Positions 2,383 to 64,000 of a stretch of 64,000 nucleotides of DNA are shown in pieces. The translations under genes were made by a program, and so were the position numbers. Position 1 is the stretch's first letter. Each line of letters begins with the position of its first letter. This DNA is from Pyrinomonadaceae bacterium (GTDB taxonomy: Bacteria > Acidobacteriota > Blastocatellia > Pyrinomonadales > Pyrinomonadaceae), in contig DASVQJ010000223.1 in assembly GCA_036389235.1 (NCBI GenBank), positions 8,333 through 72,332 of the forward strand, given 5' to 3'. Under the pieces are notes generated by a model. It saw only the letters and a program-made list of their open reading frames with translations. It was not told the DNA's origin and searched no databases.

Positions 2383-3633
2383 ATGAAGAGTCGATTTCGT
2401 CGGCCGCGGCGCGAGGCGGCGGAGGGGGGCGGGCGTCTGCGCGCGGGCGCGCTGCTCGACGTGCGGGTCGAGCGCATCCTGCCGGGCGGCGTCGGGCTCG
2501 CGCACGCGGAGGGGCAGACGCTCTTCGTCTCCCTGGCCGCGCCGGGCGACCTCGCGCGCGTGCGCGTCGAGTCCGTCCGGGGCCGCGCGGCCTTCGCCTC
2601 AATCGTCGAGGTGCTCGAACCCTCGGGCGTGCGCGCCGAGCCGCCCTGCCCATACTTCGGCCGCTGCGGCGGCTGCGACTTCCAGCAGTTGACCTACGAG
2701 GCGCAGCTCGCCGCGAAGGCCGAAATCATCCGCGACTGCCTGCGCCGCGTGGCGCACGCCGAGCTGCCCGAAGAGATCGAGGTGGTGCCCTCGCCCGAAG
2801 TCTGGCGCTACCGCTCGCGCGCGCGCTGGCAGCACGACGCGGTGCGGCGCCACCTCGGCTACTACGAGCGCGGCTCGCACCACGTCTGCGACGTGGCCGA
2901 CTGCCCCGTCGCCGCGCCGCCCGTGGCCGAGCGCCTGGCGCGACTGCGCGGGATGATGTCGGAAGGGACTCTGCCGCAGGCTTCCGAGTTCGAGGCGGTC
3001 GCGGGCGACGAAGGCGTCGCGCTCGAACCCCCGGTCGAGCGCGGGGACGAGGGCGAGCAGTTGCGCCGCATCGGCGGCGAGACCTACCGCTTCGACGCCG
3101 GCTGCTTCTTCCAGATCAACCACGCGCTGCTCGGGCCGCTCGTCGCGGAGGGCCTGCGCGGCACCGCGGAAGGCGGCGACACCGCGCTCGACCTCTACAG
3201 CGGCGTCGGCCTCTTCACGCTCCCGCTCGCGCGCCGCTTTCGACGCGTCGTCGCCGTCGAGGGCAACCACGCTTCGGCCGGGTACGCCCGCCGCAACCTC
3301 GCCGACGCCTCCCTGACCAACGCGCGCGTCGAAACCTCCGCCGTCGGCGACTGGCTCTCCCGCCACGCGGACGAAACCGGCCGCGCCGACTTCGTCCTCC
3401 TCGACCCCCCGCGCGCCGGCGCCGAGCCCGAAGCCCTCCGCGGCATCATCACCCTCCGGCCCACACACATCTCCTACGTCTCCTGCGACCCCGCCACCCT
3501 CGCCCGCGACCTCCGCCTCCTCCTCGACGCCGACTACTCGATACACTCCCTCCGCGCCTTCGACATGTTCCCGCAAACCCACCACGTCGAAACCGTCGTC
3601 CACCTCTTCAGGTCTTTGGCGGCGCAGGAGTGA
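2383..3633 (+). CDS. rlmD: TRAM-domain, Fe-S-containing 23S rRNA (uracil-C5)-methyltransferase (RlmD/RumA family)
   Basis: Cys cluster CPYFGRCGGCDFQQL, SAM-binding LDLYSGVGLFTLPLA, DPPRAG, and C-terminal YVSCDPATLARD. Confidence 0.8.
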   Translation: MKSRFRRPRREAAEGGGRLRAGALLDVRVERILPGGVGLAHAEGQTLFVSLAAPGDLARVRVESVRGRAAFASIVEVLEPSGVRAEPPCPYFGRCGGCDFQQLTYEAQLAAKAEIIRDCLRRVAHAELPEEIEVVPSPEVWRYRSRARWQHDAVRRHLGYYERGSHHVCDVADCPVAAPPVAERLARLRGMMSEGTLPQASEFEAVAGDEGVALEPPVERGDEGEQLRRIGGETYRFDAGCFFQINHALLGPLVAEGLRGTAEGGDTALDLYSGVGLFTLPLARRFRRVVAVEGNHASAGYARRNLADASLTNARVETSAVGDWLSRHADETGRADFVLLDPPRAGAEPEALRGIITLRPTHISYVSCDPATLARDLRLLLDADYSIHSLRAFDMFPQTHHVETVVHLFRSLAAQE

Positions 3634-6584
3634 ATGCGAACGAACTCTCTGCGAAAGGCTTGAACATGGCTTCAAAATCAGCCCGGACTAATGCGGAACG
3701 AGGGAGGCCGAAGCCCGCAAGCTTTCCTCGGACGGACGAAGATAAGCTGGAGTGGCTGAAGCGCGGGTGGCCCCTTCACTTTCCCGCCGTCGCGGACGGG
3801 GGGCGGGCCGATGAGTTGAGGGAGGTGCGCACGATTCGGGCGTCCTGGCTCGCGCAACTCGTGAGGCGCCCCGGGCGGCTCTGCGAGTTACCGGTCGGCA
3901 TCAAGAACGCCATCATCGTAGGGCCGCTCGACCTTCAGTACGCGACTTTCCAGTACGAGTTCTCCGTCACGGATTCGACGTTCGCGGACACCGTCAACTT
4001 TTCCTTCGCCGCGTTCAAGCGCTCGGCCGTGTTCGCCGGCTGCCGGTTTCTACGCCCCGCCCGGTTCAGGGCCGCGCGTACCGAGTTCGACTTCGACATC
4101 AAGTCGGCCCGGTTCTCGGGCGCCGCGGTGTGCACCGACCTGCACGTGGGTGCGCTCCTGCTCGCCCAGGGAGCCTGGTTCGGCAGCGCGAACTTCGAGC
4201 GCCTGACGGTCGCGAAGAGCGCGTTCTTTAAGACCGACGTCGTGGGTGGGAAGGCCGTGCGCAGCCGCTTCTGGGGCGAGGCTAACTTCAGGGACGCGGA
4301 CGTTCAAGGTAACGCCCACTTCGATGCGGCGCAGTTCCGCGCCGCCGCGATCTTCAGCCGGATGCGTGTCGGCGGGAACGCCTTCTTCGGGGCGCACACT
4401 TCTGACCGCATGACGTTGCTGACCTCCTTCGCGGGCGGGGCCAGCTTCGCCGGCTCTCAATTCCGGAACCACGCGTACTTCGGCGGAGTTCAGTTCAAAG
4501 GGAGGGCCGACTTCGGCGCCGCCAAATTTAGCGGGGACGTCTCTTTCCTGCCCGTGCCGCTCGGGGGGAAACTCATCCCCGCCTACTTCGGCGCCGAAGC
4601 ATTCTTCACGGGCGCCCAGGTCGGGGGCAGCGCGAAATTCCAGGGCTGCCGGTTCAAGAAGAGGGCGGAGTTCGAGCGGCTCCAGGTCGGCGGGGTGGCC
4701 TTCTTCCGCGCGCACACCCAGAAGCGGCAGTTGGTCGCCACCAGGTTTCATAAGAGCGCGCGTTTCATGGGCGCCGCTTTCGGCGTGGCCGCCGACTTCT
4801 GCGGCGCGCAGTTTTTGAGGGACGCCAACTTCCGCTTCGTCCGCATCGGGGGCGACGGCTACTTCCGCGCGGTGTACCTGAGGCAGGAGGAGGCGCCCAC
4901 CCTCTTCCACGGCAAGGCAGATTTCTCGGGCGCGGAAATCCGGGGCTCGGTCGAGTTCGACAGTGCGTGGTTCGTCGGCGACGCCGACTTCGAAAGGCTC
5001 AGCGTCGGGGGGAAGGCCCGCTTCCGCACGGCGTCCGGCCGCAGGAACGCGAGCCCGATCACGTTCGGCGGCGCAACCCGCTTCGTACACATGAACGTCG
5101 CCGGCACGGCGGAGTTCCACGGCGCGTACTTCGGGGGGCGAGCCGACTTCGGCCGCGCGCAGATCGGCGGCTCCGCTTTCTTCGACCCGGCCGACAAACG
5201 CACGAGGGCGACCTCGGTCTGCTTCGCGGCCGAAGTCAAGTTCGTCGATGCGCACGTGAAGGGCACGGTGAGTTTTCAGGGTGCCCAATTCCTGGGCGAG
5301 GCCGTCTTCAGCCGGCTCAAAGTGGATGGCGACGCCTTCTTCAGCAGCGTCGAGGCCGGGGGGCAGGTCGCGGTGACCAACTTCTGCGGCCAGTCCCGGT
5401 TCATTCAGGCGCACGTCCAGGGCGCCGCCCACTTTTACGGCGCCCAATTCAAGCGGGCCGCCGACTTCGGCCGGATTCAGATTGACGGCTCCGCGGGTTT
5501 CTCGCCCTTAGTGTCGCGGCGGAACCTCATCCAGACCTCCTTTCAGGACGAGGTCAAGTTTCAGAGTTCGCGGATTAAAGGTCTGGCGGATTTCGGGGGA
5601 GTCAACTTCGGGCGCGGCGCGAGCTTCGAGGGCGTCCGGATCGACAGCACGGCCTTGTTCCGTGCTCACGCGGACGGCCCGCTATACGTCCCCATTGTGT
5701 TCCACGGCGAGGCGAGATTTCTGGACGCCAACGTCCAGGGCTCCGTCGAGTTCAACGGCGCGCAGTTCAACCGCGGTCTCAACTTCGCGCGGGCTAAGGT
5801 CGATGGCAACGTCTTCTTTAACCCGAGGGGAGCCCCCGTCAAATTCGGAGGCCACTCCGGATTCGTCGGCACACACTTCGCCAGCCAGGTGGAATTCGAC
5901 CGGGCTCAATTCCGAGGGTCGATGGATCTGCGGGGGTTCACGTACGCCCGCATCGAGGCGGATCACAAAGACCTTTTGGAAAACCTGGCCGCCTCCGCAC
6001 ACTACGACCGGCAGCCTTACACCCAGTTGGAAAAGGTCTACCGCTCGATAGGCTACGACCGCCGGGCCGACGAGGTCTACCTCGCGCGGCGGCGGCACGA
6101 GAGGAAACGTTTTGCGGCCAGCGTCGCCAGAAGGAAGGGGGCGGCGAGGGTGGCGAGCCGGGAGGCGCTCCAGGATTTAGGCCGCGTCTCCTGGGACTAC
6201 GTGCAGTGGGGGCTATGGAACTACGGCGTCCGCCCCTACATGCTTCTCGTCGCGAGCTTCATCGTGCTCCTGGCGGGCACGTACATCTTTACCTTCCCGG
6301 GGGCGGCCGTGCCTAAGGACCCTAAAAGCAGAACCGCCCAGGACGCGCGCTTACAGCAGCCCATGCCGTCGGCCTTTAACATCAGCCTGCATCAGTTCAT
6401 ACCGATCATCGAAATCCCGCCGGGCCGCGAGTGGGTGCCCTCAGACTACCCCGCGCCGCTGCTGGGCCGCCTGAACGTGTCGTTCGCGGGGTACGCGACC
6501 TTGCACCGCTTACTGGGAGCCTTGCTGGTTCCGCTGGGCGTGGCCGCCGTCACCGGGTTGCTCATCCGTCGGGAGAAGAACTGA
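3630..6584 (+). CDS. Giant pentapeptide-repeat protein with a C-terminal transmembrane region
   Basis: About 650 aa of A(D/N)FxG-type pentapeptide modules (e.g. FSGAEIRGSVEFDSAWFVGDADFERLSVGG). The C-terminus has hydrophobic helices (YMLLVASFIVLLAGTYIFTF, LLGALLVPLGVAAVTGLLI). The start overlaps the rlmD stop (gtgaATGcg). Confidence 0.75.
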   Translation: MNANELSAKGLNMASKSARTNAERGRPKPASFPRTDEDKLEWLKRGWPLHFPAVADGGRADELREVRTIRASWLAQLVRRPGRLCELPVGIKNAIIVGPLDLQYATFQYEFSVTDSTFADTVNFSFAAFKRSAVFAGCRFLRPARFRAARTEFDFDIKSARFSGAAVCTDLHVGALLLAQGAWFGSANFERLTVAKSAFFKTDVVGGKAVRSRFWGEANFRDADVQGNAHFDAAQFRAAAIFSRMRVGGNAFFGAHTSDRMTLLTSFAGGASFAGSQFRNHAYFGGVQFKGRADFGAAKFSGDVSFLPVPLGGKLIPAYFGAEAFFTGAQVGGSAKFQGCRFKKRAEFERLQVGGVAFFRAHTQKRQLVATRFHKSARFMGAAFGVAADFCGAQFLRDANFRFVRIGGDGYFRAVYLRQEEAPTLFHGKADFSGAEIRGSVEFDSAWFVGDADFERLSVGGKARFRTASGRRNASPITFGGATRFVHMNVAGTAEFHGAYFGGRADFGRAQIGGSAFFDPADKRTRATSVCFAAEVKFVDAHVKGTVSFQGAQFLGEAVFSRLKVDGDAFFSSVEAGGQVAVTNFCGQSRFIQAHVQGAAHFYGAQFKRAADFGRIQIDGSAGFSPLVSRRNLIQTSFQDEVKFQSSRIKGLADFGGVNFGRGASFEGVRIDSTALFRAHADGPLYVPIVFHGEARFLDANVQGSVEFNGAQFNRGLNFARAKVDGNVFFNPRGAPVKFGGHSGFVGTHFASQVEFDRAQFRGSMDLRGFTYARIEADHKDLLENLAASAHYDRQPYTQLEKVYRSIGYDRRADEVYLARRRHERKRFAASVARRKGAARVASREALQDLGRVSWDYVQWGLWNYGVRPYMLLVASFIVLLAGTYIFTFPGAAVPKDPKSRTAQDARLQQPMPSAFNISLHQFIPIIEIPPGREWVPSDYPAPLLGRLNVSFAGYATLHRLLGALLVPLGVAAVTGLLIRREKN

Positions 6585-6615
6585 CGCGCCCGGCGCGCCG
6601 CCGCGCCGGGCGGGC

Positions 6616-8460
6616 TCAGTGCGAGATGATGACGGCGCCGCCCAAGCCGAAGCCGAAGCCGCCGGGCGCGGCGGCGGCGTCGAGGCGGTCGGAGAGGACG
6701 CTGCGGGCGACGATGAGGCGGGCCATGAGGCGGGCCTCGTCGCGGTTGAAGCGGTCGGCCGTCGCGCGCGTGCGGTCGAAGTCCACGCGGGCGAGTTCGG
6801 CGAGCGCCTTGACGTGGCGCGCGTAGGCGGCGCCCAGCTCGCCCATGCCGGGGCCGAGCAGCATCTCGCCCTTGCGGAACATGCCGCCCCCGGCGCCGAA
6901 CTTCTCCAGGAGCGCCGCCGCCGACATCATGTCGTTCGCCTGGTCGATGAGCGGGTCGATCATCTCGAAGGTCTTCGAGGGCTCGACCAGCGCGTAGCCG
7001 CGCGCGACTTCCAGCAGCGCCTCCACCTCGCGCTCGTTGTCGGGCTGGCGGTCGAGGAGGTCGCGCGCCTCTTCGAGCAGCCCGCCCGCGGTCTTCTTGT
7101 CCCCCTTCGCCGCGTAGACGATTGCCAGCCCGGCCAGCGCGGAGGCGCGCCGCTCCTTCGACTTGACGCGCGAGACGACGGCGCGCGCGTCGTCCGTGTT
7201 GCCCTTCTCGACGGCGCGCGCGACCTCCGCGTTGTCGAAGTAGGCGAGCAGCTGCTCGCGCTCCTGCCCGCGCAGATGATCGTTGACGACCGCGCGGGCC
7301 TTCTCCGCCTCGCCGGATTGGAAGAGCTTCGAGGCGGCGGCCATGTAGAGCTGCCCGCGCATCTCTGCGGGCGCCTTCGCGGCCTCTTCGAGGATGCCCT
7401 CCGGCGGCCTGCCCATGACGGAGTCGTACTGCGCCCAAGCCTTCGCGCGCGGGTCGAGCAGCCTGTCCATCTCGGCGAGCTTCAGGCGCAGTTGCGCGGC
7501 GCGCGCCGGCACGCGCTTCTCCAGCTCGGGCAGGAGCGGGCGGATCGACATCATCATCCCGAAGGCGCCGTTGGCGGAAGAGTCCTTGAGCGCGGCGGCC
7601 GCGACGAGGTCGGCCAGCTCGCGCACGTCCGAGTCCTCCATGACGAGCGGCTTCGGCTTCTCGGGCGCGGCCGCGGCGGGGACGGGGATGTTGTTGTAGT
7701 AGCGTATCTGCTCGCCGGACGGCGGGAGCAGGACGCCGCGGAGCAGCGAGGCGGCGACCATCCACGCCTCGCGCCCGCCGCCCACCGTCTCGCCGCGCAG
7801 CTTCCCGACGATCTTCCCGGCGAGCTTCGTCGCCGCCTCCGGGTCCTTCTGGCTCAGCCGTTCGAGCAGCCCGAGGATGCCGTAGGTCACGCCCTTACTC
7901 AGGCTCTCCTCCGCCAGACGCAGCGCCGCCTTCGGGTCGGACCCGGCCGCCAGCGCCGTGAGCGACTGCTCCAGCCTCAGCTCCACGTCGGGGTCGCCCG
8001 CGGGCGCGTTCGAGCCGTCCTCCGAGGCGGGGCGCGACTCGCGCAGCAGTTCGAGCGCGAGCTGCGCGTCGCGCGCGGCGGCCGTGTAGAGCAGTTGCGA
8101 GCGCAGTTGCGTGGCCATCCAGTAGTCGCGGCCGCCGCGGTTCGGGTCGCCGGACTTCACGGCGGCGAGGTCGGCCGCGGCGTCGCGGAAGAGTGCGCGC
8201 GCGCGCTTCTCGTCGCGCGGCCAGAGGAGGTCTGCGGCCTGCAAGCGCACGGACGCGCGGTTCTCGGCCAGCTTGAGCACCTGCGCCCCTTCGAGCGTCT
8301 CGTCGAGCAGCACGAGCGCCTTGCGCTCAAGCTCCTTGCGCGCCTTCGCCTTCTCCTCCTCGGACTCCTGTTTGGCGGGCGGCGGCGACTGCGCCGCGGC
8401 GGCCGTCGAAAGTACGAGCAGGCAGAGCGTGAGTGCCTTGAGCGAGAGTCGGAGCGGCAT
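6616..8460 (-). CDS. Secreted helical-repeat protein, function unknown
   Basis: Signal peptide MPLRLSLKALTLCLLVLSTAAAAQ at ATG 8460. The body is Ala/Leu/Glu/Arg-rich with repeated helices. The upstream extension to 8520 lacks signal-peptide logic. Confidence 0.55.
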   Translation of the reverse strand: MPLRLSLKALTLCLLVLSTAAAAQSPPPAKQESEEEKAKARKELERKALVLLDETLEGAQVLKLAENRASVRLQAADLLWPRDEKRARALFRDAAADLAAVKSGDPNRGGRDYWMATQLRSQLLYTAAARDAQLALELLRESRPASEDGSNAPAGDPDVELRLEQSLTALAAGSDPKAALRLAEESLSKGVTYGILGLLERLSQKDPEAATKLAGKIVGKLRGETVGGGREAWMVAASLLRGVLLPPSGEQIRYYNNIPVPAAAAPEKPKPLVMEDSDVRELADLVAAAALKDSSANGAFGMMMSIRPLLPELEKRVPARAAQLRLKLAEMDRLLDPRAKAWAQYDSVMGRPPEGILEEAAKAPAEMRGQLYMAAASKLFQSGEAEKARAVVNDHLRGQEREQLLAYFDNAEVARAVEKGNTDDARAVVSRVKSKERRASALAGLAIVYAAKGDKKTAGGLLEEARDLLDRQPDNEREVEALLEVARGYALVEPSKTFEMIDPLIDQANDMMSAAALLEKFGAGGGMFRKGEMLLGPGMGELGAAYARHVKALAELARVDFDRTRATADRFNRDEARLMARLIVARSVLSDRLDAAAAPGGFGFGLGGAVIISH

Positions 8461-16925: not shown

Positions 16926-19730
16926 ATGTCCGGGAGTTCTTCCACATCGAACTTCGGCGAGTACCCGCTCGTCGTCCTCGCCACGGCGTTCGCGTCGGGC
17001 GTGCTGCTCGCGCGCTTCACCTCCGCCCCTCCTTCCGCCTGCGTCGCACTCGCCGCGCTGACTTCCGCGTTAGCATTCTTCGTCTTTCTTAAGAGAAGAG
17101 AGGCGGCCGCCGCGCGTCTCGTCGTGCTCGCCTTCGCCTGCGCGGGCGCCGCGCTATCGTCCATCGAAGCAAAAGGAGCGGGAGGCGAGTCGCGGCTGCG
17201 CGGCCTCTACGAGGGCGGACGAATCGCATCCGGCGAGCCGGTCGAGCTGACCTGCGTGCTGGAGCGCGCGCCCGAGATCGCGCCCGACGGCCTGCTGCTC
17301 TCGCTGCGCGTCGAGTCGGTGCGGCACAGGTCCGTCGAGACTTCGTGCGGCGGGCGCGTCGAGCTGTTCGCGCCCGTGTCCGACGCGCGCGCCGGGGCCG
17401 CATACGAGTCGCTTGAGCTGAGGCGCGGCGCGCGCGTGCGCGTGGCCGCGGCGCTCACGCGCGCGGAGAGGTATCGCAACCCGGGCGTAAGGCCCTTCGG
17501 CGACTACCTCGACGCGCGCGACGTGGACGCGCGCGGGACGCTCAAGAGCGCGCTCCTCGTCGAACGCCTCGACGACGAGGCCGTCCCGCTCCCGCTCGCG
17601 CTGCTCGACGGCTGGCGCGGGGCGCTCGTCAGACGTGCCGACGCCTCCTTCTCGACGGACGCCGCGGGCGTCTTCAAGGCCGCCGTGCTCGGCAACCGCT
17701 TCGGACTCTCGCGCGCCGCGGCCGAGCGCTTCCGCGAAGGCGGCACCATCCACGCGCTCGTCATCAGCGGCCTCCACATCGCCTTCGTCGGCGGGCTCGT
17801 GTGGGCCTTGGCCCGCAGGCTCACGCGCCGGCCCGCGGCGCGCTGGGCCGCTTCGGCCGCGTGCGTGTGGGCTTACACGCTCGGCGTCGGGGCCGAGCCT
17901 TCGGTCGTGCGCGCGGCGCTCACCTTCACTCTGGCGGCGCTCGCGCCGGCGCTCGGACGGCGCTCGGGCGCGCTCAACGCGACGGGCGGGGCCGCGCTCG
18001 CGCTGCTCGTCTGGCGACCCGCGACGCTCTACGACCCCTCGTTCCAACTGACGTTCCTCTCCGTGCTCTCCGTGCTGGCCTTCGCGCTGCCCCTCGTCTC
18101 GAACCTCAAGGCCGTAGGCCGTTGGCGGCCGGCGCGCGCGACGCCCTACCCGCCCGCGTGCCCGCGCTGGTTCCGCGCCCTGGCCGAGACGCTCTACTGG
18201 CGCGAGCGCGCCTGGCGGCGCGAGATGGAGCGCGCCTCTCACAGCTACGGGCTGTTCAAGACGCCGTGGGCTTCGCGCCTCGAACGCCTGCGCTTGCAGC
18301 CCCCGCTGCGCTTCGCCTTCGCCGCGCTGTCGATGACGACCGCCGTGCAGCTCGTCCTCCTCCCGCCGCAGGTCGTCTACTTCCACCGCCTCCCGCTCGC
18401 CTCGCCCGTGCTCAACCTCTTCGCGGGCGCGCTCCTCGTCGCGCAAGCCTTCGCCGCGCTCGCCTCGATGGCGGTCGGCGAGGTGAGCACGACGCTCGCC
18501 GCGCCGCTCGTACGACTGACCGAAGCTTCGACATACCTCCTCGTCCACGGCGTCGACCCCTTCGCGCGCGCGGGCGTCGCCAGCCTCCGCCTCCCCGCAT
18601 ACGCGGGCGCGGCTTCCGCCCTCTACGCGCTGCACTACGCGCCGCTACCCCTGCTCGCGCGCGCTCTCCTCCGCTGGCGCCCGCTGGCCGAGCCGCCGCG
18701 CGCAGGAAGGTTCGAGGAGGACACAAGCGGGATGAGGGTTGACGAAGGCCACGTCTTTAAGAGTCGCGCCGCGGCGCGGGGCGGGCGTCTGTTGAAGGCC
18801 GCGGGTTGGATGTCTGTCACGACCGCCTTCGCCATCGTCGCACACCCCTTCAGCGCGCCGCGCCCCGACGGCCGACTGCGCGTGGACTTCATCGACGTGG
18901 GGCAGGGCGACGCGGCGCTCGTCACCATGCCCGACGGCTCGACTTTGCTCGTGGACGGCGGCGGCCGTCCCGGCTTCCGCGCCGCGCGGCGTCATGAAGA
19001 CGAGGCGGAGGAGTTCGAGCCCGACTCCCGCGGCGTCGGCGAAGCGGCCGTCGCCGAGTACCTCTGGTGGAGGGGCTTGTCCCGCCTCGACTACGTGCTG
19101 GCGACGCACGCCGACGCCGACCACATCGACGGCCTGAACGACATCCTCAAGAGCTTCGGCGCGCGCGCCGCCCTCGTCGGCCGCGCCCCTTCCGAAGACG
19201 AGGAGTTCGCACGATTCTCCCTGACCGCGAACGAAGCGGGCGTGCCCGTCTACGCCGTCGCGCGCGGCGACCGCCTGCGCTTCGGCGCGGTCGAAGTGGA
19301 CGTGCTCTGGCCGCCGCCGGTCGAAACCTTCGCGGGGGAAGAGGGCACGCGCCGCGCGGCCCCCGCGAACGACGACTCGGTCGTGCTGCGCCTGCGCTAC
19401 GGGCGCCGGACGTTCCTGCTCACCGGCGACATCGAGTCGCGCGCGGAGCGCGCCCTCCTGGCCGCGGGCGACGGCCTCCGCTCCGACGCGCTCAAAGTCT
19501 CACACCACGGCAGCCGCACCTCCTCGACCGACGGCTTCGTCAACGCGACCCGTCCGTCGTTCGCCGTCGTCTCCGTCGGCCGCGACTCGCCCTACGGCCA
19601 CCCGCACGCGGAAGTCCTCGCGCGCTGGCAAGCCGCGGGCGCGCAAGTCCTGACCACGGCCGAGCGCGGCATGGTCACCGTCTCGACTGACGGGGAAGAC
19701 TTGAGGGTCGAAACATTCGTCCGGTGGTAG
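16926..19730 (+). CDS. comEC: DNA internalisation competence protein ComEC/Rec2 with a C-terminal metallo-beta-lactamase domain
   Basis: Multi-TM N-terminal and central region, ComEC core (IHALVISGLHIAFVGG), and MBL motifs VDFIDVGQGDAALV, THADADHIDG and KVSHHGS. Confidence 0.85.
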   Translation: MSGSSSTSNFGEYPLVVLATAFASGVLLARFTSAPPSACVALAALTSALAFFVFLKRREAAAARLVVLAFACAGAALSSIEAKGAGGESRLRGLYEGGRIASGEPVELTCVLERAPEIAPDGLLLSLRVESVRHRSVETSCGGRVELFAPVSDARAGAAYESLELRRGARVRVAAALTRAERYRNPGVRPFGDYLDARDVDARGTLKSALLVERLDDEAVPLPLALLDGWRGALVRRADASFSTDAAGVFKAAVLGNRFGLSRAAAERFREGGTIHALVISGLHIAFVGGLVWALARRLTRRPAARWAASAACVWAYTLGVGAEPSVVRAALTFTLAALAPALGRRSGALNATGGAALALLVWRPATLYDPSFQLTFLSVLSVLAFALPLVSNLKAVGRWRPARATPYPPACPRWFRALAETLYWRERAWRREMERASHSYGLFKTPWASRLERLRLQPPLRFAFAALSMTTAVQLVLLPPQVVYFHRLPLASPVLNLFAGALLVAQAFAALASMAVGEVSTTLAAPLVRLTEASTYLLVHGVDPFARAGVASLRLPAYAGAASALYALHYAPLPLLARALLRWRPLAEPPRAGRFEEDTSGMRVDEGHVFKSRAAARGGRLLKAAGWMSVTTAFAIVAHPFSAPRPDGRLRVDFIDVGQGDAALVTMPDGSTLLVDGGGRPGFRAARRHEDEAEEFEPDSRGVGEAAVAEYLWWRGLSRLDYVLATHADADHIDGLNDILKSFGARAALVGRAPSEDEEFARFSLTANEAGVPVYAVARGDRLRFGAVEVDVLWPPPVETFAGEEGTRRAAPANDDSVVLRLRYGRRTFLLTGDIESRAERALLAAGDGLRSDALKVSHHGSRTSSTDGFVNATRPSFAVVSVGRDSPYGHPHAEVLARWQAAGAQVLTTAERGMVTVSTDGEDLRVETFVRW
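19516..19730 (+). repeat. comEC 3'-end repeat, copy 1 (in frame with the full gene)
   Basis: 215 bp repeated at 22392-22606 and 25162-25376. The first 56 bp are identical in all three copies. Confidence 0.9.
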
Positions 19731-19807
19731 TGTCGCCAAGGCGGTCGGGTGAAAATTTCATGTTTAGACCAAGCGAAAATGGGGCAACACAATATTGCGA
19801 AATTTCG

Positions 19808-19837
19808 TTGACGGCAGATGTATGCTGAGCGTATAAC
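19808..19837 (+). promoter_or_regulatory. Candidate sigma70-like promoter at the left end of islet A
   Basis: TTGACG, 18-nt spacer, TATAAC. Confidence 0.3.
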
Positions 19838-20015
19838 CTGATTGTTTGATGAAAGCGGACTTGCCTTAAGAGCTATTGACGATCCCCTCATATCTGTCAA
19901 CTGCGTGCAGATTGATGCGATCTTCCTAAATATAATTCCCTTACTTCCTGTACTTAAATTAACTCCCCCGTCACCTCCTATGGTGAGTGTTAGCAATTCC
20001 CCTCGGTTACCGACG

Positions 20016-20576
20016 ATGAGGGAGAAGACCAACGGTCTAAAACGTCAAGCGATGACGAACATCGGTAAGAAGTTAGAGGTGCTCGCCAATCTGGCGATTA
20101 TTATCGCCGGCTCCTTGTTAGCCGGTGTCTTGGTTAAAAACCATTTATTTCAAGGGCCGAGCGAGGGGCCAGTCCGGACACAAAGCAGCCCACAACCTAT
20201 GGAGGGGACGAGACTGACTTTAACCAATGTAGATTGGACGCAGAGTAAGCAGACGCTTTTACTGGCTTTGTCCAGCAGTTGCTATTATTGCACTGAGAGC
20301 GCCCCTTTTTACAAAAGACTCGGCCAGAGCAAAAAGGGAACCCGGCTGGTGGTCGTCCTGCCTGAGTCAGTCGAAGACGGGCAGAGCTACTTGAAAAGGC
20401 TCGGGCTCTCTGTGGACGAAGTAAGGCAGTTGAGCCTGGACAAAATTGACGTACAGGTGACGCCGACTTTGTTACTAGTAGATAACTCCGGCGTGGTTAA
20501 GAAATCGTGGTTAGGAAAATTGCCACCGGAACAAGAGGAGTCAGTAGTGAGCACTTTGCTTGATGACGGAGAGTAG
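20016..20576 (+). CDS. Membrane-anchored thioredoxin-fold (TlpA/ResA-like) protein with a CYYC motif
   Basis: N-terminal TM LANLAIIIAGSLLAGVLV. Redoxin-like LLLALSSSCYYCTESAPFY...TPTLLLVDNSGVV. The start is ambiguous (20016 or 20052). Confidence 0.55.
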   Translation: MREKTNGLKRQAMTNIGKKLEVLANLAIIIAGSLLAGVLVKNHLFQGPSEGPVRTQSSPQPMEGTRLTLTNVDWTQSKQTLLLALSSSCYYCTESAPFYKRLGQSKKGTRLVVVLPESVEDGQSYLKRLGLSVDEVRQLSLDKIDVQVTPTLLLVDNSGVVKKSWLGKLPPEQEESVVSTLLDDGE

Positions 20577-20628
20577 TGAAGCCCCGATGTGTAGGACTAC
20601 GGCACGGCAAGTGCCGAGGAGGTGATCC

Positions 20629-56836: not shown

Positions 56837-56869
56837 TCCCCGCGCGGGCGCAGGAGAAGAAGGGAATCA

Positions 56870-57134
56870 TTAACACGGCTGGACGGGATGAGCAGGATAA
56901 GGGGTTTAAGATTTGAGATTTCAAATTTGAAATCTTCAATCTCTCAAAGCGGTTCTCATCCGGACGGGTATGAAGTGGGCTTTCAACACGGAGACACGGA
57001 GACACAGCTTCGTCTTTAGTATTCAACCAGCCGTGTCTCTGTGTCTCTGTGTCTCTGTGTTAAATCGCTCTCGCTTTCACCCAACTGCATACTGCAATAA
57101 TTCCTATCCCGTACGTCCTGTCCAGCCGTGTTAA
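56870..57134. repeat. Nested palindromic element: outer inverted repeats enclose two word-repeat hairpins
   Basis: Outer arms are ttaacacggctggacgggatgagcaggataagg (56870-) and its near-complement ending at 57134. Inner hairpins are gatttgagatttcaaatttgaaatcttcaatc and cacggagacacggagacacag...ccgtgtctctgtgtctctgtgtctctgtg. Confidence 0.8.
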
Positions 57135-57135
57135 T

Positions 57136-58785: not shown

Positions 58786-58851
58786 CGGCGAAAGAAAAAT
58801 TCACAGGGATGGTCAGGATGAACAGGGTTAAGAATTGAAGATTTGAGATTT

Positions 58852-58859
58852 CAAATTTG
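58852..58859. repeat. Left 8-bp target-site duplication (caaatttg)
   Basis: Identical octamer at 63809-63816. The paralogous uninterrupted hairpin near 56920 has a single caaatttg. Confidence 0.7.
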
Positions 58860-58920
58860 GGTGATAATATACTTGACGAATCATCACCCAAAGATAGACA
58901 ATGGGCGCGTCGGGGGGCTT

Positions 58921-60600
58921 ATGCTCCCGGCAAAGGCTGTCACTATACCATGCCGAAAGACCAGAATCGGCCACTGGGGGAATGCCGTGCCCACTAACCT
59001 CGTAAACCTTGACGCGCTGATTCCGCGTGAAGACTTTGAGATTCGGGAAGATGCCGTGCGCTTTGAGCAACGCGACAGGATTGCGATTAATGACTTGAAT
59101 CCCGGCTTCTTCTACAACGCGCTAAGGAAGCCCGACTTTCAGCGCGAAACGTCGGGCTGGAATGCCCCCAAGATAGCCGACTTGGTTACTAGCTATCTGA
59201 GCGGCGACCTAATCCCGGCCGTCATCCTATGGCAGCCGGAAAACGGCGGCAGCATTTTTGTCATAGACGGAGCCCATCGCCTGAGCGCCTTAATCGCTTG
59301 GGTGCGAGATGATTATGGCGACGGCGATGTGTCGCGCTCGTTTTTCAAAAACCAACTCCCTCCGGAGCAAGTCGCGGCGGCCGAGAGAACTCGGAAGCTG
59401 GTAAAAGGGACTGTGGGCTCATTCGCGGAGCATCTTGCGGCTACGCAGTACCCCGAACAATCCAGGCCGGAAGTCAGGGCGCGGGCCAGACGCTTGGGGA
59501 CGCTGGCCGTCATAGTTCAATGGGTGAACGGCAACGCGGACAAGGCCGAGCAGTCGTTTTTCAAAATCAACCAAGAGGCGACGCCGATTGACCCGACCGA
59601 ACTTCGCATCCTGCGCGCCCGCAAACACGCTAACGCTTTGGCCGCGCGCGCAATCATGCGAGCCGGGACGGGGCATCGGTATTGGGAGCAATTCACCGAA
59701 GAGTATCAGAAAGGGATTGAAACTATGGCGGCGGAGATTCACCGGATTCTGTTCTCGCCGCCGCTGGTGACGCCCATTAAGACGCTGGACTTGCCCGTTG
59801 CCGGGCGTTCTTATTCGGCCCTAACGCTGCCGCTCATCTATGACTTGGTAAACCTAGCTAACGGCGAAACGCCGCTCACACCGGCCGAAAAAGCCAAGAC
59901 CCCCAAGAAAGGGGAGAAGGTCAAGGAGATTCCAAAGCCTGACTTGACAGACCCCGACGGGCAAAAAACCATCCGGTATCTATCCAGGGTGCGGACTACC
60001 GTCCAAAGAATCTCGGGCACACATTCTTCGTCGCTCGGGCTTCACCCGGCCATTTACTTTTACAGCACGATGGGACGCCATCAGCCGACGGCGTTTCTAG
60101 CCGTGGTCGGTTTCATCATGGAACTTGAAAAGCGCGAGCAGCTAAAGGTCTTCACCGGACACCGGGAGAGGTTTGAGGACTTTCTACTGGCGCAGAAAGA
60201 CATGGTGAACCAGATTGTGAGGCGCTTCGGTGGCGGCTTAAAGCCGTTCTATAGGCTTAAAAACTTTTATCACTTCGTCTACGAGGCCATTAAGGCGGGG
60301 AAGGATGACGCACAGATACTCAGCGAACTCGAAAAGCATGAAGTCTTCGCGTTCGTCAAAGCCTTACCGGCATACGAAGAAGAAACCGAACAGCAAGACT
60401 TCAAGACATCGGTTAAGTCGGGGGCGTTCTTGAAGGCTGCCCTGGAAGCGCCCCGCGAGCGGTGCGGGATATGTCACGCCAGGCTCCATGTCAATTCCAT
60501 CTCTCTTGACCATATCGTGAGGAAAGCGGACGGCGGAATAGGGACGCTGGACAACTCGCAACTGGCGCACCCGTATTGCGATTCGACGGTGAAGAACTAA
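58921..60600 (+). CDS. ParB/sulfiredoxin-fold DUF262/DndB-like domain fused to a C-terminal HNH nuclease motif
   Basis: N-terminal KPDFQRETSGW and VIDGAHRLSAL (compare the FQR...W and DGQ(Q/H)R motifs). SFFKINQEATPIDPTE. C-terminal CGICHARLHVNSISLDHIVRKADGGIGTLDNSQLAHPYC. The start is uncertain (58921 ATG or 58987 GTG). Confidence 0.6.
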   Translation: MLPAKAVTIPCRKTRIGHWGNAVPTNLVNLDALIPREDFEIREDAVRFEQRDRIAINDLNPGFFYNALRKPDFQRETSGWNAPKIADLVTSYLSGDLIPAVILWQPENGGSIFVIDGAHRLSALIAWVRDDYGDGDVSRSFFKNQLPPEQVAAAERTRKLVKGTVGSFAEHLAATQYPEQSRPEVRARARRLGTLAVIVQWVNGNADKAEQSFFKINQEATPIDPTELRILRARKHANALAARAIMRAGTGHRYWEQFTEEYQKGIETMAAEIHRILFSPPLVTPIKTLDLPVAGRSYSALTLPLIYDLVNLANGETPLTPAEKAKTPKKGEKVKEIPKPDLTDPDGQKTIRYLSRVRTTVQRISGTHSSSLGLHPAIYFYSTMGRHQPTAFLAVVGFIMELEKREQLKVFTGHRERFEDFLLAQKDMVNQIVRRFGGGLKPFYRLKNFYHFVYEAIKAGKDDAQILSELEKHEVFAFVKALPAYEEETEQQDFKTSVKSGAFLKAALEAPRERCGICHARLHVNSISLDHIVRKADGGIGTLDNSQLAHPYCDSTVKN

Positions 60601-60603
60601 GCC

Positions 60604-60777
60604 ATGAGTGAACCTAAAAAGCCGGATGAGTTTGAGGAGTTCGACAAGGTAATGGGCGGACTCTTATCCGTCCCTTACTCGGAACTTCAAAAGAAGTTGG
60701 AAGAAGAAAAGAAGGCGAAGGAGAAAGAGAAGGGGAAGCGGGCGCCAAGCCCGACAACCCGCCAACGGCGGCGGTAG
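60604..60777 (+). CDS. Small Lys/Glu-rich protein (57 aa), likely co-transcribed with the nuclease-like gene
   Basis: The ATG lies 3 nt after the upstream stop. Sequence MSEPKKPDEFEEFDKVMGGLLSVPYSELQKKLEEEKKAKEKEKGKRAPSPTTRQRRR. It is below the ORF-track cutoff and I translated it by hand. Confidence 0.45.
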   Translation: MSEPKKPDEFEEFDKVMGGLLSVPYSELQKKLEEEKKAKEKEKGKRAPSPTTRQRRR

Positions 60778-60928
60778 ATTTCTCGCGCCGCAAAAACTAT
60801 TGCATTCTACGCCGCGCGGGTTTACTCTTCGGCGCGTGGGTGTCGCCTCTGCTTTCCGACCCTCACACAAGCACACTACTACCTAGCCGCCACTAGGCAG
60901 CGTTGCCCCGTGTGTAATTGCGCGTGAC

Positions 60929-61117
60929 TTAGAGCAGAACCGCGAGCAGTTCCAGCGCGATCTGTGTCAGGGCGTTCGGCGCGTCGTTCGACATCTCGCC
61001 GTCCGTCGTGGCGCTAGTCTGCGGCGGCGGCGCGGGCTTGTCGTTCGGCATATCGCCCGCGACGGCCGGGCCGGTCAGGAGTAGAACAAGCAGACAAGTT
61101 CCTAGAGTTTTACGCAT
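60929..61117 (-). CDS. Small secreted peptide precursor (62 aa)
   Basis: aaggga SD-like sequence before ATG 61117. Signal peptide MRKTLGTCLLVLLLTGPAVAG. The mature part has an internal repeat (GDMPNDKPAPP / GEMSNDAPNA) and a hydrophobic C-terminus IALELLAVLL. Confidence 0.5.
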   Translation of the reverse strand: MRKTLGTCLLVLLLTGPAVAGDMPNDKPAPPPQTSATTDGEMSNDAPNALTQIALELLAVLL

Positions 61118-61156
61118 CACTTTCCCTTTCGTGGTAATGGGAGCTAACCACCGTCG

Positions 61157-61213
61157 CCGCCGTATCTTCGTGATATACGGCGGCTTTGCTGCGTATGACA
61201 CAAAAGTGTCATA
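61157..61213. promoter_or_regulatory. Two perfect palindromes in the divergent spacer between the peptide gene and the TPR-HTH gene
   Basis: ccgccgtat-N9-atacggcgg (61157-61183) and tatgacac-aaaa-gtgtcata (61194-61213). Confidence 0.45.
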
Positions 61214-61234
61214 GCAGAGAAAGGCTGGCCTCAC

Positions 61235-62719
61235 ATGAATTTAGCAGACGACCGCCTTAAGGAACTAGATAACCCTTCACTGACTGAGAGCGAGCGCGTC
61301 ACGCTGCGCTGCCAAGTGGCGGCAGACCTCATCCACAAAGGCCAGTACGAAGCCGCACGCGAGGCGCTAGGCGAGTTGTGGCTAGGCGTCGGGCAGAGGC
61401 CGCCCGTTCGGAACCTACCGCCCGCCCTGGACGCCGAAGTCCTGCTTAGGTGTGGCACGCTGACGCGACTACTGGGCAACGTCCGTAATGTCGCGGGGGC
61501 ACAAGAGCAGGCTAAGGACATGCTCTCCGAAGCGGCGCGGACGTTCCGCGCCGAAGGGATGCCCGTTAAGGTGTCGGAGGCTCAGTATGAACTTGCCATG
61601 TGTTATTGGTGGTTAGGCGAGCATGATGAGGCGCGGGTGGTGCTTGAAGAGGCACTAATGCCTTTGACGGATGCTGACGTAGAACTGAAGGCGAAGATTC
61701 TTATCAGGCGAACGATTGTTGAAGTATGGGACAACAGGTATTACGACGCCTTGAACATTCTGAGAGACGCGGAGCCGGTTTTCGAGTCGGCAAACGACGC
61801 GCTCAAAGGCAGGTGGCACGGGCAGAAGGGGCTAGTCCTCAGAAGGCTCGCCACGGCGGAAGGGCGGAGCGACTATGCGGACAGGGCGGTCATAGAGTTC
61901 ACGGCGGCGATTTATCATTACGAGCAGGCGGGACACGAAAGGTACTGCGCGACGAACCTTAATAACCTCGCCATGCTGCTTTATAAGGTGGGGCGATTCC
62001 GCGAAGCGCACGAACATCTTGACCGCGCGCAACTGATATTCACGAAGCTTAAGGACACGGGAAGTCTGGCGCAGGTGGATGAGACGCGCGCCCGTGTTCT
62101 AGTCGCGGAGAAGAAGTACCGCGACGCCGACCGCATCATTGCCGGAGTCATTAAGACCTTTGAACAGGGCGGCGAGTCCGCTCTGCTCGCGGACGCTCTC
62201 TCCATTCAAGGCGTCGTATGGGCGAGGCTCGGGCTGCATGAAGCTTCGATCAACATGCTGCGCGAAGCTATGAAGGTCGCGCAGGACTCCGGCGCTTTAA
62301 CTCAGGCCGGGCACGCGGCCGTGACACTGATAGAGGAACACGGCGCGGCGTGGCGGCTGTCGGCGTCGGACGTTATGAAGGTATACCGCCGCGCCAGTGA
62401 CTTCTTAAAAGGCTCGCAAGACATAGAGGATAAGGACAGACTTCTGGCGGGCGCGCGGGTGGTGATAAGGCGTCTGTCGGGGATGCAGTTCCACGACAAG
62501 AACTTTAGCTTTTACGGCGCGGTGCATGAGCTAGAGGAGAGGCTGATAGAGCAGGCTTTGGAATCGGAAGGGGGCAGCATCACGCGCGCCGCCGAGAGGC
62601 TAGGGTTAAAGCGCCAAGCACTGGCGAGTATGCTTCAGGCGCGGCACAAGAAGTTGATGGGCAAGCGCACGCCGCCAGTCCCGCGCCTCAAGAGCATTAT
62701 TAAAACGCCTAAAGAATAA
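61235..62719 (+). CDS. TPR-repeat protein with a C-terminal Fis-type helix-turn-helix
   Basis: About 400 aa of TPR-like helical pairs (e.g. YCATNLNNLAMLLYKVGRFREAHEHLDRA). The C-terminus LEERLIEQALESEGGSITRAAERLGLKRQALASMLQ resembles the NtrC/Fis HTH. Confidence 0.65.
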   Translation: MNLADDRLKELDNPSLTESERVTLRCQVAADLIHKGQYEAAREALGELWLGVGQRPPVRNLPPALDAEVLLRCGTLTRLLGNVRNVAGAQEQAKDMLSEAARTFRAEGMPVKVSEAQYELAMCYWWLGEHDEARVVLEEALMPLTDADVELKAKILIRRTIVEVWDNRYYDALNILRDAEPVFESANDALKGRWHGQKGLVLRRLATAEGRSDYADRAVIEFTAAIYHYEQAGHERYCATNLNNLAMLLYKVGRFREAHEHLDRAQLIFTKLKDTGSLAQVDETRARVLVAEKKYRDADRIIAGVIKTFEQGGESALLADALSIQGVVWARLGLHEASINMLREAMKVAQDSGALTQAGHAAVTLIEEHGAAWRLSASDVMKVYRRASDFLKGSQDIEDKDRLLAGARVVIRRLSGMQFHDKNFSFYGAVHELEERLIEQALESEGGSITRAAERLGLKRQALASMLQARHKKLMGKRTPPVPRLKSIIKTPKE

Positions 62720-62746
62720 GAGGCGGGCTACTTCTTCGCCCGCCTC
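62720..62746. terminator. Hairpin between the convergent TPR-HTH and transposase genes
   Basis: gaggcgggc-tacttcttc-gcccgcctc. Confidence 0.55.
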
Positions 62747-62779
62747 CCGCGCTTCTTCAGGTTCAAAGAAGCGAACCGA

Positions 62780-63760
62780 CTAGCACGGTAATTTACCGTC
62801 GCCCGGCAGCTTGCCCGTCAGTTCGTCATAGGTGAGACGCTTGCCCGCCACCTGTCCGGTCACTTTATGAAAGCGGTCGCCGTCTTTACCGTGGCGCTCG
62901 TTGAAACGGAACGTCTGCTCGTCAAGGTAGCGGAACAGGTGATAGGGTTCGACGCTGACATACGTGCCCTTGATGCTGCGCTTCAGAAGGCTCCAAAAGT
63001 TCTCTATGCCGTTGGTGTGAATCTGGCCGTCAACGTACTTCTCCGCGTGGTCAACGAACTGGTGAACGTATGCAGGGTTAAGACCGAGGTAAGAGCGGTG
63101 CGCGTCCGTCATCACTTCGCAACCGGGTTCGACGTTGCTCTTAATCTCGTTGTGGAGCGTTTCCTGCGCCCTGTTAAGGATGACTTTAGCCCTGACCTTG
63201 CTGCCGTCGCCGTGGCGCTCAAGAAGGCCGAACACGATGGCCTTGCCGCATCCGCCCGGCCCCGTAATCTTGCGCTCGCGCACGTCCCGGTGCATGTTCT
63301 TCGACAGCCCGCCGATGAACGTCTCGTCGGCTTCAACCGGGGCGCCTTCGCCGCCCATCTTCTTCTCGAAAGAGCCGGTCTGCATCGCAAGGCGAATGCG
63401 GTGTATCATGAACCAAGCGGTCTTCTGAGTGACGCCGATAGCGCGGTGAATCTCGTAAGACGAGACGCCGTTCTTGCAGTTGGTAATCATCCAGACGGCC
63501 ATGAGCCACTTGTCGAGGCCGAGCGGCGAGTCTTCAAAGATGGTTCCGACCTTGACGCTGAACTGACGCTTGGCGTGCGCGCTCTTACACTGCCACTTGT
63601 TCTGCTTCGCCAGAAACGAAACGTCCGTGCGGCCGCACGTCGGGCAGATGACGCCGTTCGGCCAGCGGCGGGCGGCCATGTACTCGCGGCAGTTGTCGGG
63701 GTTAGCGAAGAATACGATGGCCTCTTGCAGTGTCTTCGGGGTGGCTTGCTTCGTCATCAT
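62780..63760 (-). CDS. IS1595-family transposase (N-terminal zinc ribbon plus ISXO2-like DDE domain)
   Basis: ARRWPNGVICPTCGRTDVSFLAKQNKWQCKSAHAKRQFSVKVGTIF, SSYEIHRAIGVTQKTAWFMIHRIR, VEADETFIGG. Confidence 0.85.
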   Translation of the reverse strand: MMTKQATPKTLQEAIVFFANPDNCREYMAARRWPNGVICPTCGRTDVSFLAKQNKWQCKSAHAKRQFSVKVGTIFEDSPLGLDKWLMAVWMITNCKNGVSSYEIHRAIGVTQKTAWFMIHRIRLAMQTGSFEKKMGGEGAPVEADETFIGGLSKNMHRDVRERKITGPGGCGKAIVFGLLERHGDGSKVRAKVILNRAQETLHNEIKSNVEPGCEVMTDAHRSYLGLNPAYVHQFVDHAEKYVDGQIHTNGIENFWSLLKRSIKGTYVSVEPYHLFRYLDEQTFRFNERHGKDGDRFHKVTGQVAGKRLTYDELTGKLPGDGKLPC

Positions 63761-63766
63761 GCAGTG

Positions 63767-63795
63767 ATACTAGCATGACGGGCTTGATTCGTCAA
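63767..63795 (-). promoter_or_regulatory. Candidate transposase promoter with its -35 inside the right terminal repeat
   Basis: The minus strand reads TTGACG (63795-63790), 17 nt, TAGTAT (63772-63767). The ATG lies 6 nt after the -10, which implies a leaderless or near-leaderless mRNA. Confidence 0.45.
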
Positions 63796-63808
63796 GTATA
63801 TTATCACC

Positions 63809-63816
63809 CAAATTTG
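63809..63816. repeat. Right 8-bp target-site duplication (caaatttg)
   Basis: See 58852-58859. Confidence 0.7.
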
Positions 63817-63838
63817 AAATCTTCAATCAAACATTCTC

Positions 63839-64000
63839 TTATCCCGTCCGTCCCTGTGAATTCTCGCTTACGTCATCGCGCTCCCAATCCCGCGCGCGCT
63901 CGACGGCGCGGAGCCAGCGGCGGTGGAGTCGTTCGCGCTCGTCCCCGGGCATCCGCGGCTCGTAGCGGCGCGCGACGCGCCAGCGCGCGGCGATCTCGCG
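63839..64000 (-). CDS. glpK: Glycerol kinase, C-terminal 53 codons (the gene continues beyond the window)
   Basis: The minus-strand translation ...REIAARWRVARRYEPRMPGDERERLHRRWLRAVERARDWERDDV... matches the characteristic GlpK C-terminus (W..ERRFEP.M......Y..W..AV.R...W). Confidence 0.7.
   Translation of the reverse strand, partial: REIAARWRVARRYEPRMPGDERERLHRRWLRAVERARDWERDDVSENSQGRTG

Follow-up and report, generated by a model that had tools for sequence, protein, structure and literature searches.

To our knowledge, peptide signalling through cytoplasmic receptors built from tetratricopeptide repeats (TPRs) is regarded as a speciality of Firmicutes, together with their plasmids and phages. 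A locus of a Pyrinomonadaceae bacterium raises the question whether a module of the same logic also exists in a diderm phylum, the Acidobacteriota. The locus lies in a 64,000-nucleotide (nt) stretch of contig DASVQJ010000223.1, hereafter the window, and consists of a gene for a TPR protein with a C-terminal helix-turn-helix (HTH) domain, called the regulator below, and a divergent small open reading frame (ORF) for an exported peptide, called pep. The original prediction, made from the sequence of the window alone, likened this pair and two palindromes between its genes to the RRNPP-type peptide-signalling modules. The features described there are present at the locus, well beyond chance, and as a whole that interpretation is partly supported by the comparisons reported here.

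The two genes belong to a conserved unit of ~2.3 kb (window 60800–62719), which begins at a putative promoter, P_as, and ends where the TPR-HTH_8 gene stops. Its parts follow each other in the order P_as, a conserved block of 100 nt, pep (in antisense), hairpin 1, palindrome 2, the sequence CCTCAC-ATG and the TPR-HTH gene. Conservation between loci stops just upstream of P_as and at the regulator stop codon; the left limit, at ~60800, lies beyond the part of the window considered previously, and the lack of conservation past the regulator stop codon marks the right edge. Self-contained mobile units of this type form a large family in Pyrinomonadaceae (Acidobacteriota), of which the present cassette is one representative; the family seems undescribed, as no account of it was found in the literature library searched. 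Peptide/TPR-receptor logic with control by convergent transcription is known from other systems; the cassette differs from these in being non-homologous to the known families and in its location in a diderm phylum.

Pairing of the regulator and peptide genes

The regulator family comprises >2,400 proteins, essentially all from Pyrinomonadaceae/Acidobacteriota. The 119 best non-self matches of the window protein are 73–87% identical to it, and all named ones belong to Pyrinomonadaceae or Acidobacteriota. Loci of the family were sampled from species-representative genomes (29 loci) and from metagenomes (80 loci). Among the related loci having at least 330 nt of upstream DNA, a divergent signal-peptide ORF was found in 99 of 100, with its start 113–124 nt from the regulator ATG, so that the small ORF is indeed conserved beside homologues of the regulator. 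Searches that began with the peptide led to the same arrangement. A peptide-profile search retrieved 1,134 proteins, none with a name, and three peptide-first look-ups on long contigs gave five pairs, each with a divergent TPR/HTH_8 neighbour; a peptide of this family without the regulator, which would have spoken against the proposed module, was seen at none of the sampled loci. An obligate conserved pair of regulator and exported small ORF is supported by these comparisons.

Conservation is high in the regulator, with a mean column identity of 76%. Copies in which the regulator is broken retain an intact pep (L014, L029 and L035). Several regulator paralogues can occur in one genome, with different putative operators and different peptide motifs, and up to five were counted in one metagenome-assembled genome.

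The exported peptide

In the window, pep is a divergent ORF of 62 amino acids (aa) on the minus strand (60929–61117), separated from the regulator gene by a spacer of 117 nt. As had been described, a Shine–Dalgarno-like AAAGGGAAAG precedes its ATG and the predicted product begins with a Sec signal peptide. The predicted cut is at AVA↓G. The statistics for pep were drawn from 90 distinct peptides. Their cleavage site follows the form AxA↓G: of the 90, 67 have Ala in position −3, 85 have Ala in position −1, and 88 continue with Gly in position +1. A reading of pep as a lipoprotein only was dropped, because AxA↓G is near-universal and a lipobox Cys occurs in about half of the peptides. At the median, the mature peptide is 54 aa long and carries a net charge of −6; it almost never contains Cys, and is predicted to be disordered apart from a C-terminal helix with the consensus SLTQxALxLLAVLPSLL (ALTQIALELLAVLL in the window). 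The hydrophobic C-terminus, already noticed in the original prediction, is the most conserved part of the peptide.

The internal repeat seen earlier in the window peptide (GDMPND and GEMSND) proved to be one case of a motif shared across the family, G-x-[MIVL]-x-[NT]-x, which is present in 85 of the 90 peptides and in at least two copies in 55. In 76 of the 90, the motif starts exactly at mature residue 1. Moreover, the repeats of a single peptide resemble one another more closely than they do those of different peptides (2.57 vs 1.84 of 5 positions), a value not attained in any of 2,000 permutations (p < 0.0005). This concerted, locus-specific evolution of the repeats points to the motif as a specificity-bearing unit.

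A putative promoter beyond the peptide gene

Past the pep stop codon, ~165 nt of DNA are more conserved than pep itself. Here lies P_as (60800–60828, plus strand), with the −35 element TTGCAT at 60800–60805, a spacer of 17 nt and the −10 element TACTCT at 60823–60828. The pattern TTGCA[TA]-N17-TA[AC]TCT was found in 88 of 89 distinct loci, at a median of 100 nt from the pep stop codon; although variable in sequence, the spacer measures exactly 17 nt at 85 of the 88. Such conservation of elements and spacing is the signature of a sigma-70-type promoter, which would point rightward through pep toward the regulator gene. With P_as located beyond pep, the pep gene would be antisense to the leader of the regulator. 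The divergent pair and the palindromes of the earlier layout stand, and the conserved promoter signature beyond the peptide gene had been missed.

A scan of the whole cassette for TTGnnn-N16-18-TAnnnT on both strands gave no position-conserved match except P_as. A canonical pep promoter and a second regulator promoter in the 117-nt spacer were also considered and dropped, since none was found there. Sigma-54 promoter candidates inspected by eye downstream of hairpin 1 and in the conserved block are unfit in spacing or in their GG/GC dinucleotides and are unconserved.

The conserved non-coding block between P_as and the pep stop codon (~100 nt, 60829–60928) would supply the 5′ portion of the plus-strand transcript and also adjoins pep on its 3′ side. 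It contains stretches at 90–100% nucleotide identity over ~90 loci, which is above the identity of the pep coding region. In a search of 60400–61400 on both strands, neither the hairpins nor the conserved block matched an Rfam family. RNAalifold gave no fold of the block in the plus sense and a single 6-bp hairpin, GCUGCC/GGCGGC, in the pep sense, and z-scores of single-sequence folding were not significant; on these results, a structured RNA in the block was dropped. That the block, or a stretch spanning hairpin 1, encodes a leader peptide or small ORF was likewise rejected, as the lengths of indels there do not follow a triplet pattern and conservation extends to third codon positions.

The translation-initiation region of the regulator gene (GCAGAGAAAGGCTGGCCTCAC, 61214–61234, plus strand) is also highly conserved. 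Its CCTCAC-ATG is nearly invariant: among 94 sequences, C95 and C96 never vary, and conservation of the columns from T97 to G103 is 90% or higher. The 7-mer CCTCACA, nearly invariant at 61226–61234 just before the regulator ATG, occupies the place where a Shine–Dalgarno sequence would be expected, and it recurs in the conserved block at ~60862–60868. As a speculation, the pep-sense RNA, carrying UGUGAGG, could pair with the regulator start region.

Two palindromes of different character

Both palindromes described for the spacer are present in the window, and their position is kept in 94 distinct sequences. Across these sequences, compensatory changes were observed in 11 of the 14 predicted pairs, and hairpin 1 (palindrome 1) shows such changes. 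Their original treatment as equivalent operators has to be revised, however, because palindrome 1 behaves as a plus-strand RNA hairpin/terminator.

Hairpin 1, GCCGCCGTAT...ATACGGCGGC followed by TTT, lies at 61156–61184 (to 61187 including TTT) and is read on the plus strand. It is GC-rich, with a folding energy of −18 kcal/mol, and at most loci 3–6 T are found in the 8 nt after it. Mismatches in its stem on the plus strand are G.T in 65 cases and A.C in 19 (binomial p ~5e-7, uncorrected for relatedness), which is as expected of a stem selected as RNA in a plus-strand transcript. By these features hairpin 1 reads as a leaky intrinsic terminator or attenuator ahead of the regulator gene.

Palindrome 2, TATGACAC-AAAA-GTGTCATA (61194–61213), gave 54 vs 49 mismatches by the same procedure, and this lack of strand bias is as expected of a symmetric DNA site. 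Its centre is fixed at ~−31 from the regulator ATG. The centre is A/T-rich, and the arms are 4–12 bp long and differ among paralogues of one genome. NtrC sites have the form of arms of at least 7 bp around a short A/T-rich centre. Palindrome 2 resembles them in shape and is the likely operator, and the candidate binding site of an HTH_8 dimer. Sequences of the recognition helix vary together with those of the palindrome. With Arg at the second position of the recognition helix, TGAC-N8-GTCA was found in 18 of 22 loci, and with His/Tyr helices in 0 of 53. This link between helix and palindrome is consistent with an operator and falls short of proof. No second copy or half-site of palindrome 2 was found within 5–10 kb on either side at any locus. 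With palindrome 2 unique per locus over that distance, the idea of the regulator as a master regulator of the surrounding island was dropped.

The TPR-HTH_8 regulator

The regulator gene (61235–62719, plus strand) encodes 494 aa with ~9 TPR-like helix pairs, an HTH at residues 432–463 and a basic tail. Pfam and NCBIfam confirm a TPR protein that ends in a Fis/NtrC-type HTH and has neither an AAA+ nor a receiver domain, as had been noted from the sequence. In Pfam, the TPR part matched TPR_12 (3e-12), TPR_2, TPR_1 and others, and the HTH matched HTH_8 (PF02954) at 6.8e-9, with 35.8 bits against a cut-off of 22; Sigma54_activat was matched in neither Pfam nor NCBIfam. The AlphaFold2 model (predicted local distance difference test score, pLDDT, 89; predicted template modelling score, pTM, 0.77) is an all-helical TPR superhelix, with TPR helices to residue 415, followed by a small HTH domain.

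In Foldseek and PDB profile searches, LGN/Pins, kinesin light chain (KLC) and OGT were closest to the TPR part (residues ~60–420), a similarity to eukaryotic superhelices that is general (13–16% identity, TM-score 0.4–0.5). The PDB profile search listed KLC, designed TPRs, IFIT, FleQ and Fis, with FleQ/Fis corresponding to the HTH part. As modelled, the TPR domain has the kind of fold that accommodates peptides in an extended conformation. PADLOC matched only the HTH of the regulator, weakly and to the RtcR/PspF model (E 5e-4), and left pep unmatched, and PHROGs gave nothing informative for either protein.

A proposed mechanism and its alternatives

Comparison of the loci gives the parts of the cassette, their order, their conservation and their strand signatures, and from these, as searches for RNA sequencing runs found none, we infer its transcripts and the following mechanism. 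P_as would make a plus-strand RNA antisense to pep. Most of this RNA would be halted at hairpin 1, and the RNA that reads through would be the regulator mRNA. A regulator dimer would bind palindrome 2 via its NtrC/Fis-type HTH and from there control, and possibly block, read-through into its own gene. From the same site, ~86 nt upstream of the pep ATG, the regulator would also act on a non-canonical pep promoter. Pep would be exported by Sec and cut at AxA↓G. Either the locus-specific G-x-M-x-N-D motifs or the conserved C-terminal tail of pep would be the ligand of the TPR superhelix, reaching it after processing and re-uptake or before export. The TPR domain would then set the state of the switch, and a peptide-responsive loop would be closed.

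According to this mechanism, the TPR ligand would be a pep-derived peptide, a reading that we put ahead of its rivals but at slightly under an even chance when the re-uptake and pre-export variants are taken together. For binding of a re-imported peptide, the indirect evidence is the concerted evolution of the repeated motif. A more far-reaching version strikes us as doubtful. In it the pro-peptide would be cut to G-x-M-x-N-D and re-imported into a bistable nested circuit, as the first case of peptide communication through a cytoplasmic receptor in a diderm; the non-RRNPP TPR-HTH receptor would then represent an independent invention of the logic of arbitrium and of pheromone plasmids.

Several observations weigh against the proposed mechanism. 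The host is diderm, so that a re-imported peptide would have to cross the outer membrane twice, and the cassette is linked to neither a transporter nor a protease. A lipobox-like Cys is found in 48 of the 90 signal peptides. In the main clade, the T-run behind hairpin 1 is short (TTTGCTG), and the link between recognition helix and palindrome goes back to only ~3 independent changes on the tree. Since the regulator and the pep C-terminus are both conserved, paralogues might cross-talk if the tail were the ligand. In addition, apart from pep and the regulator no output gene is conserved in the cassette, which fits pep as an effector and not as a signal.

The last point leads to the strongest rival, in which pep is a tightly silenced exported output, acting for example in exclusion, abortive infection or at the envelope, while the TPR domain responds to another cue, for example a protein of a phage or of the host. 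We judge this possible, if on the unlikely side. TPR sensors of STAND/Avs proteins are a precedent for a TPR domain that senses a phage or host protein, and a divergent regulator–target pair, as seen here, is the commonest bacterial arrangement. The apparent silencing of pep in layers, by convergent promoter, terminator and operator, suggests that its expression is costly, and the mobile elements carry defence cargo, namely a GmrSD-like nuclease in the window, restriction-modification in L015 and toxin-antitoxin in L031. However, PADLOC found no match beyond the HTH, and the acidic, disordered mature peptide is unlike known membrane-active effectors. The concerted repeats of each locus are what one expects of a co-evolving partner encoded next door, and less of a generic effector, and the retention of an intact pep beside a broken regulator also argues against a silenced effector.

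Alternatively, the TPR domain may bind the unexported pep precursor inside the cell, so that the regulator reports the export of pep and not cell density. This partner switching shares the pairing and TPR evidence with the mechanism proposed above and does not need re-uptake across two membranes. In type III secretion, substrates are bound by TPR chaperones (IpgC, SicA, LcrH), the hydrophobic C-terminal helix of pep resembles a chaperone-bound segment, and NCBIfam reports a weak similarity of the regulator to SycD/LcrH chaperones (E 0.065), although one far under the curated threshold. We nevertheless consider partner switching improbable. The Sec signal peptide with its canonical AxA↓G argues for efficient export, and the exact start of the motif at the N-terminus made by signal peptidase suggests that the processed form matters.

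A type I toxin-antitoxin-like addiction module, with pep as membrane toxin, the P_as RNA as antitoxin and the TPR-HTH protein as accessory regulator, would account for a conserved convergent promoter whose RNA is complementary to the entire pep mRNA, for the small, multi-copy and mobile nature of the module and for the hydrophobic N-terminal segment of pep, but is very improbable, because that segment is a cleavable signal peptide and no membrane anchor, the mature product is acidic and disordered where type I toxins insert into the membrane uncleaved, type I modules lack a 494-aa regulator more conserved than the 'toxin', and P_as is also the sole promoter available to the regulator gene.

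Comparison with known systems

The comparison with RRNPP modules was the central claim of the original prediction, and it holds in part. The adjacent exported pro-peptide gene is real (99/100 loci, with AxA↓G cleavage). Homology was not found: no RRNPP protein appeared in the Foldseek PDB top 50 or in the PDB profile search, and for this reason the regulator is not an RRNPP member; Pfam at E ≤ 0.1 returned generic TPR families only and no RRNPP relation. The DNA-binding RRNPP members have an N-terminal HTH of XRE type, whereas the HTH here is C-terminal and of HTH_8/Fis type. Nevertheless, the cassette resembles Rap-Phr, AimR-AimP, PlcR-PapR, NprR-NprX and Rgg-SHP in having a cytoplasmic TPR-type receptor encoded beside an exported pro-peptide gene, many paralogous pairs per genome and frequent carriage on mobile elements, and some RRNPP precursors likewise contain several copies of the mature peptide. 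In contrast to these systems it is non-homologous, has a C-terminal Fis/NtrC HTH, resides in a diderm acidobacterial host, and encodes a longer pro-peptide (61–87 aa) with a conserved hydrophobic tail.

In layout, the closest parallel is the prgX/prgQ region of pCF10 from Enterococcus faecalis. There, prgX, which encodes a cytoplasmic peptide-sensing repressor of the RRNPP family, and prgQ (iCF10) have face-to-face promoters, and the peptide ORF falls within the region of overlap. Transcription toward the regulator either terminates early, leaving a short antisense RNA, or reads through to give the regulator mRNA; an operator lies between the two genes, and the system is on a mobile element (PMC3181467). 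In the cassette, the putative promoter beyond the peptide gene, the terminator-like hairpin in the leader and the candidate operator between the genes would be the counterparts, with the transcripts deduced from sequence, and the cassette is likewise mobile. The overlap would include the entire peptide gene (~330 nt), compared with 223 nt in pCF10. The two systems show no relation in sequence or fold, and PrgX has an N-terminal XRE-type HTH. Furthermore, prgQ leads into conjugation genes, whereas pep in the cassette would be monocistronic without downstream output. By analogy, the cassette would match RRNPP systems in logic and prgX/prgQ in layout, and probably arose independently.

Other known proteins share single parts. 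Like NtrC, FleQ and Fis, the regulator has a C-terminal HTH_8 domain, and palindrome 2 has the NtrC form. Unlike the NtrC family, it is without the AAA+ domain for sigma-54 activation and without a receiver domain, and it therefore cannot be an enhancer-binding protein. The TPRs of LGN/Pins, kinesin light chain and OGT recognise short linear motifs in extended form, many of them acidic, and pep repeats a motif of this kind; the likeness is general and does not identify the ligand. TxpA/RatA and BsrG/SR4 also combine a small ORF for a hydrophobic segment with a convergent promoter facing it from past its 3′ end, and are carried on mobile elements. They differ from the cassette, in which the signal peptide is cleavable, the mature part is acidic and the antisense transcript would continue into the regulator gene.

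A non-homologous module with the same parts list exists on mobile elements of a soil phylum that is abundant yet little studied, and its copies number in the thousands. Should the peptide prove to be the ligand, then 'talking' by peptides would extend to the mobile elements of Gram-negative-type bacteria, and the cassette would offer a compact test system. If it is not, the cassette would be a new three-layer control unit (convergent promoter, attenuator and operator) for a small exported protein, and one that travels with defence cargo. In both cases, comparative data already define variants of promoter, terminator, operator and motif.

The carrier transposon

In the window, the cassette is carried with other passenger genes by a transposon of the IS1595 family (58860–63808). 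Its ends are 24-nt terminal inverted repeats (left, IRL, 58860–58883; right, IRR, 63785–63808), and an 8-bp target duplication, CAAATTTG, flanks both ends (58852–58859 and 63809–63816). The transposase gene (62780–63760, minus strand, 326 aa) is convergent with the regulator gene, and its product matches DDE_Tnp_IS1595 (3e-39), Zn_ribbon_IS1595 and NF033547 (2e-53) in Pfam/NCBIfam, so that zinc-ribbon DDE transposase, inverted repeats and 8-bp duplication all agree with IS1595. The GC content of the transposon is ~57%, against ~70% in the flanks. Outside it, the flanking glpD has its best named relatives in Pyrinomonadaceae/Acidobacteriota (83–87% identity), so that the host itself resembles Pyrinomonadaceae. 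These ends, the target duplication and a second copy elsewhere bear out the earlier view that the pair is transposon-borne.

The second copy (L054) lies in another context on a metagenome contig, and is 79% identical over 5,034 nt. Its alignment with the window (2573–7559 vs 58860–63808) is a mosaic. The nuclease arm is 90–94% identical, and from ~60700 rightwards, over cassette and transposase, identity falls to 56–83%. This drop near 60700–60775 indicates a recombination breakpoint at the left cassette edge. The two copies differ in peptide, putative operator and recognition-helix type.

The nuclease arm (58921–60777, plus strand) encodes a protein with GmrSD_N (DUF262; 2e-10) and HNH (1e-5) domains in Pfam and a Lys/Glu-rich ORF of 57 aa. 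Among >100 related loci, L054 is the only other one with a GmrSD-like nuclease beside the cassette. Hence the nuclease is co-cargo and not a partner, and a functional link between it and the cassette was dropped.

A hairpin, GAGGCGGGC-N9-GCCCGCCTC, is located at 62720–62746, directly after the regulator stop codon and between the convergent regulator and transposase genes. It is probably the transposon's own terminator, because it is common to L054 and absent from other cassettes. A palindromic host repeat element occurs between convergent genes at 56864–57135, and the transposon sits at the centre of a second copy of this repeat (58794–58859 / 63809–63862), where it duplicated CAAATTTG.

Other mobile contexts of the cassette

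Carriers of IS1595 type were found in the window, L054, L114 and L117, and, more distantly, in L035/L036 and L050. The cassette also rides small islands integrated at tRNA genes. These encode a tyrosine integrase, a Prim-Pol/D5_N primase and an HTH_17 protein of AlpA type, and among their cargo are the restriction-modification system and the toxin-antitoxin genes mentioned above. At four loci, a tRNA gene lies directly 3′ of the regulator gene. No relative of the cassette was found among IMG/VR viral contigs, which gives no sign of a phage-borne cassette.

One island of ~11.4 kb is complete (L015, 1213–12728), bounded by a tRNA-Arg gene on one side and a partial repeat of tRNA-Arg on the other. 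Besides the cassette, its content is two DNA methylases, an HTH_3 controller protein, a PLD-type endonuclease, a Prim-Pol/PriCT primase, an HTH_17 protein and an integrase. Two cassettes stand side by side in L035/L036 (5208–8234) and in L034 (1119–8243). Those of L035 are tail to tail, and one regulator there is cut to 314 aa beside its intact pep. An IS1595 transposase and a 213-aa fragment with a TPR remnant and HTH_8 were found 2–4 kb from the paired cassettes. Finally, 6 kb from the cassette of L031, at 17497–20598, a protein of 1,033 aa combines TPR_12, TPR_MalT, Sigma54_activat AAA+ and HTH_8 domains, and a protein of this kind is a possible source of the AAA+-less combination of TPR and HTH_8.

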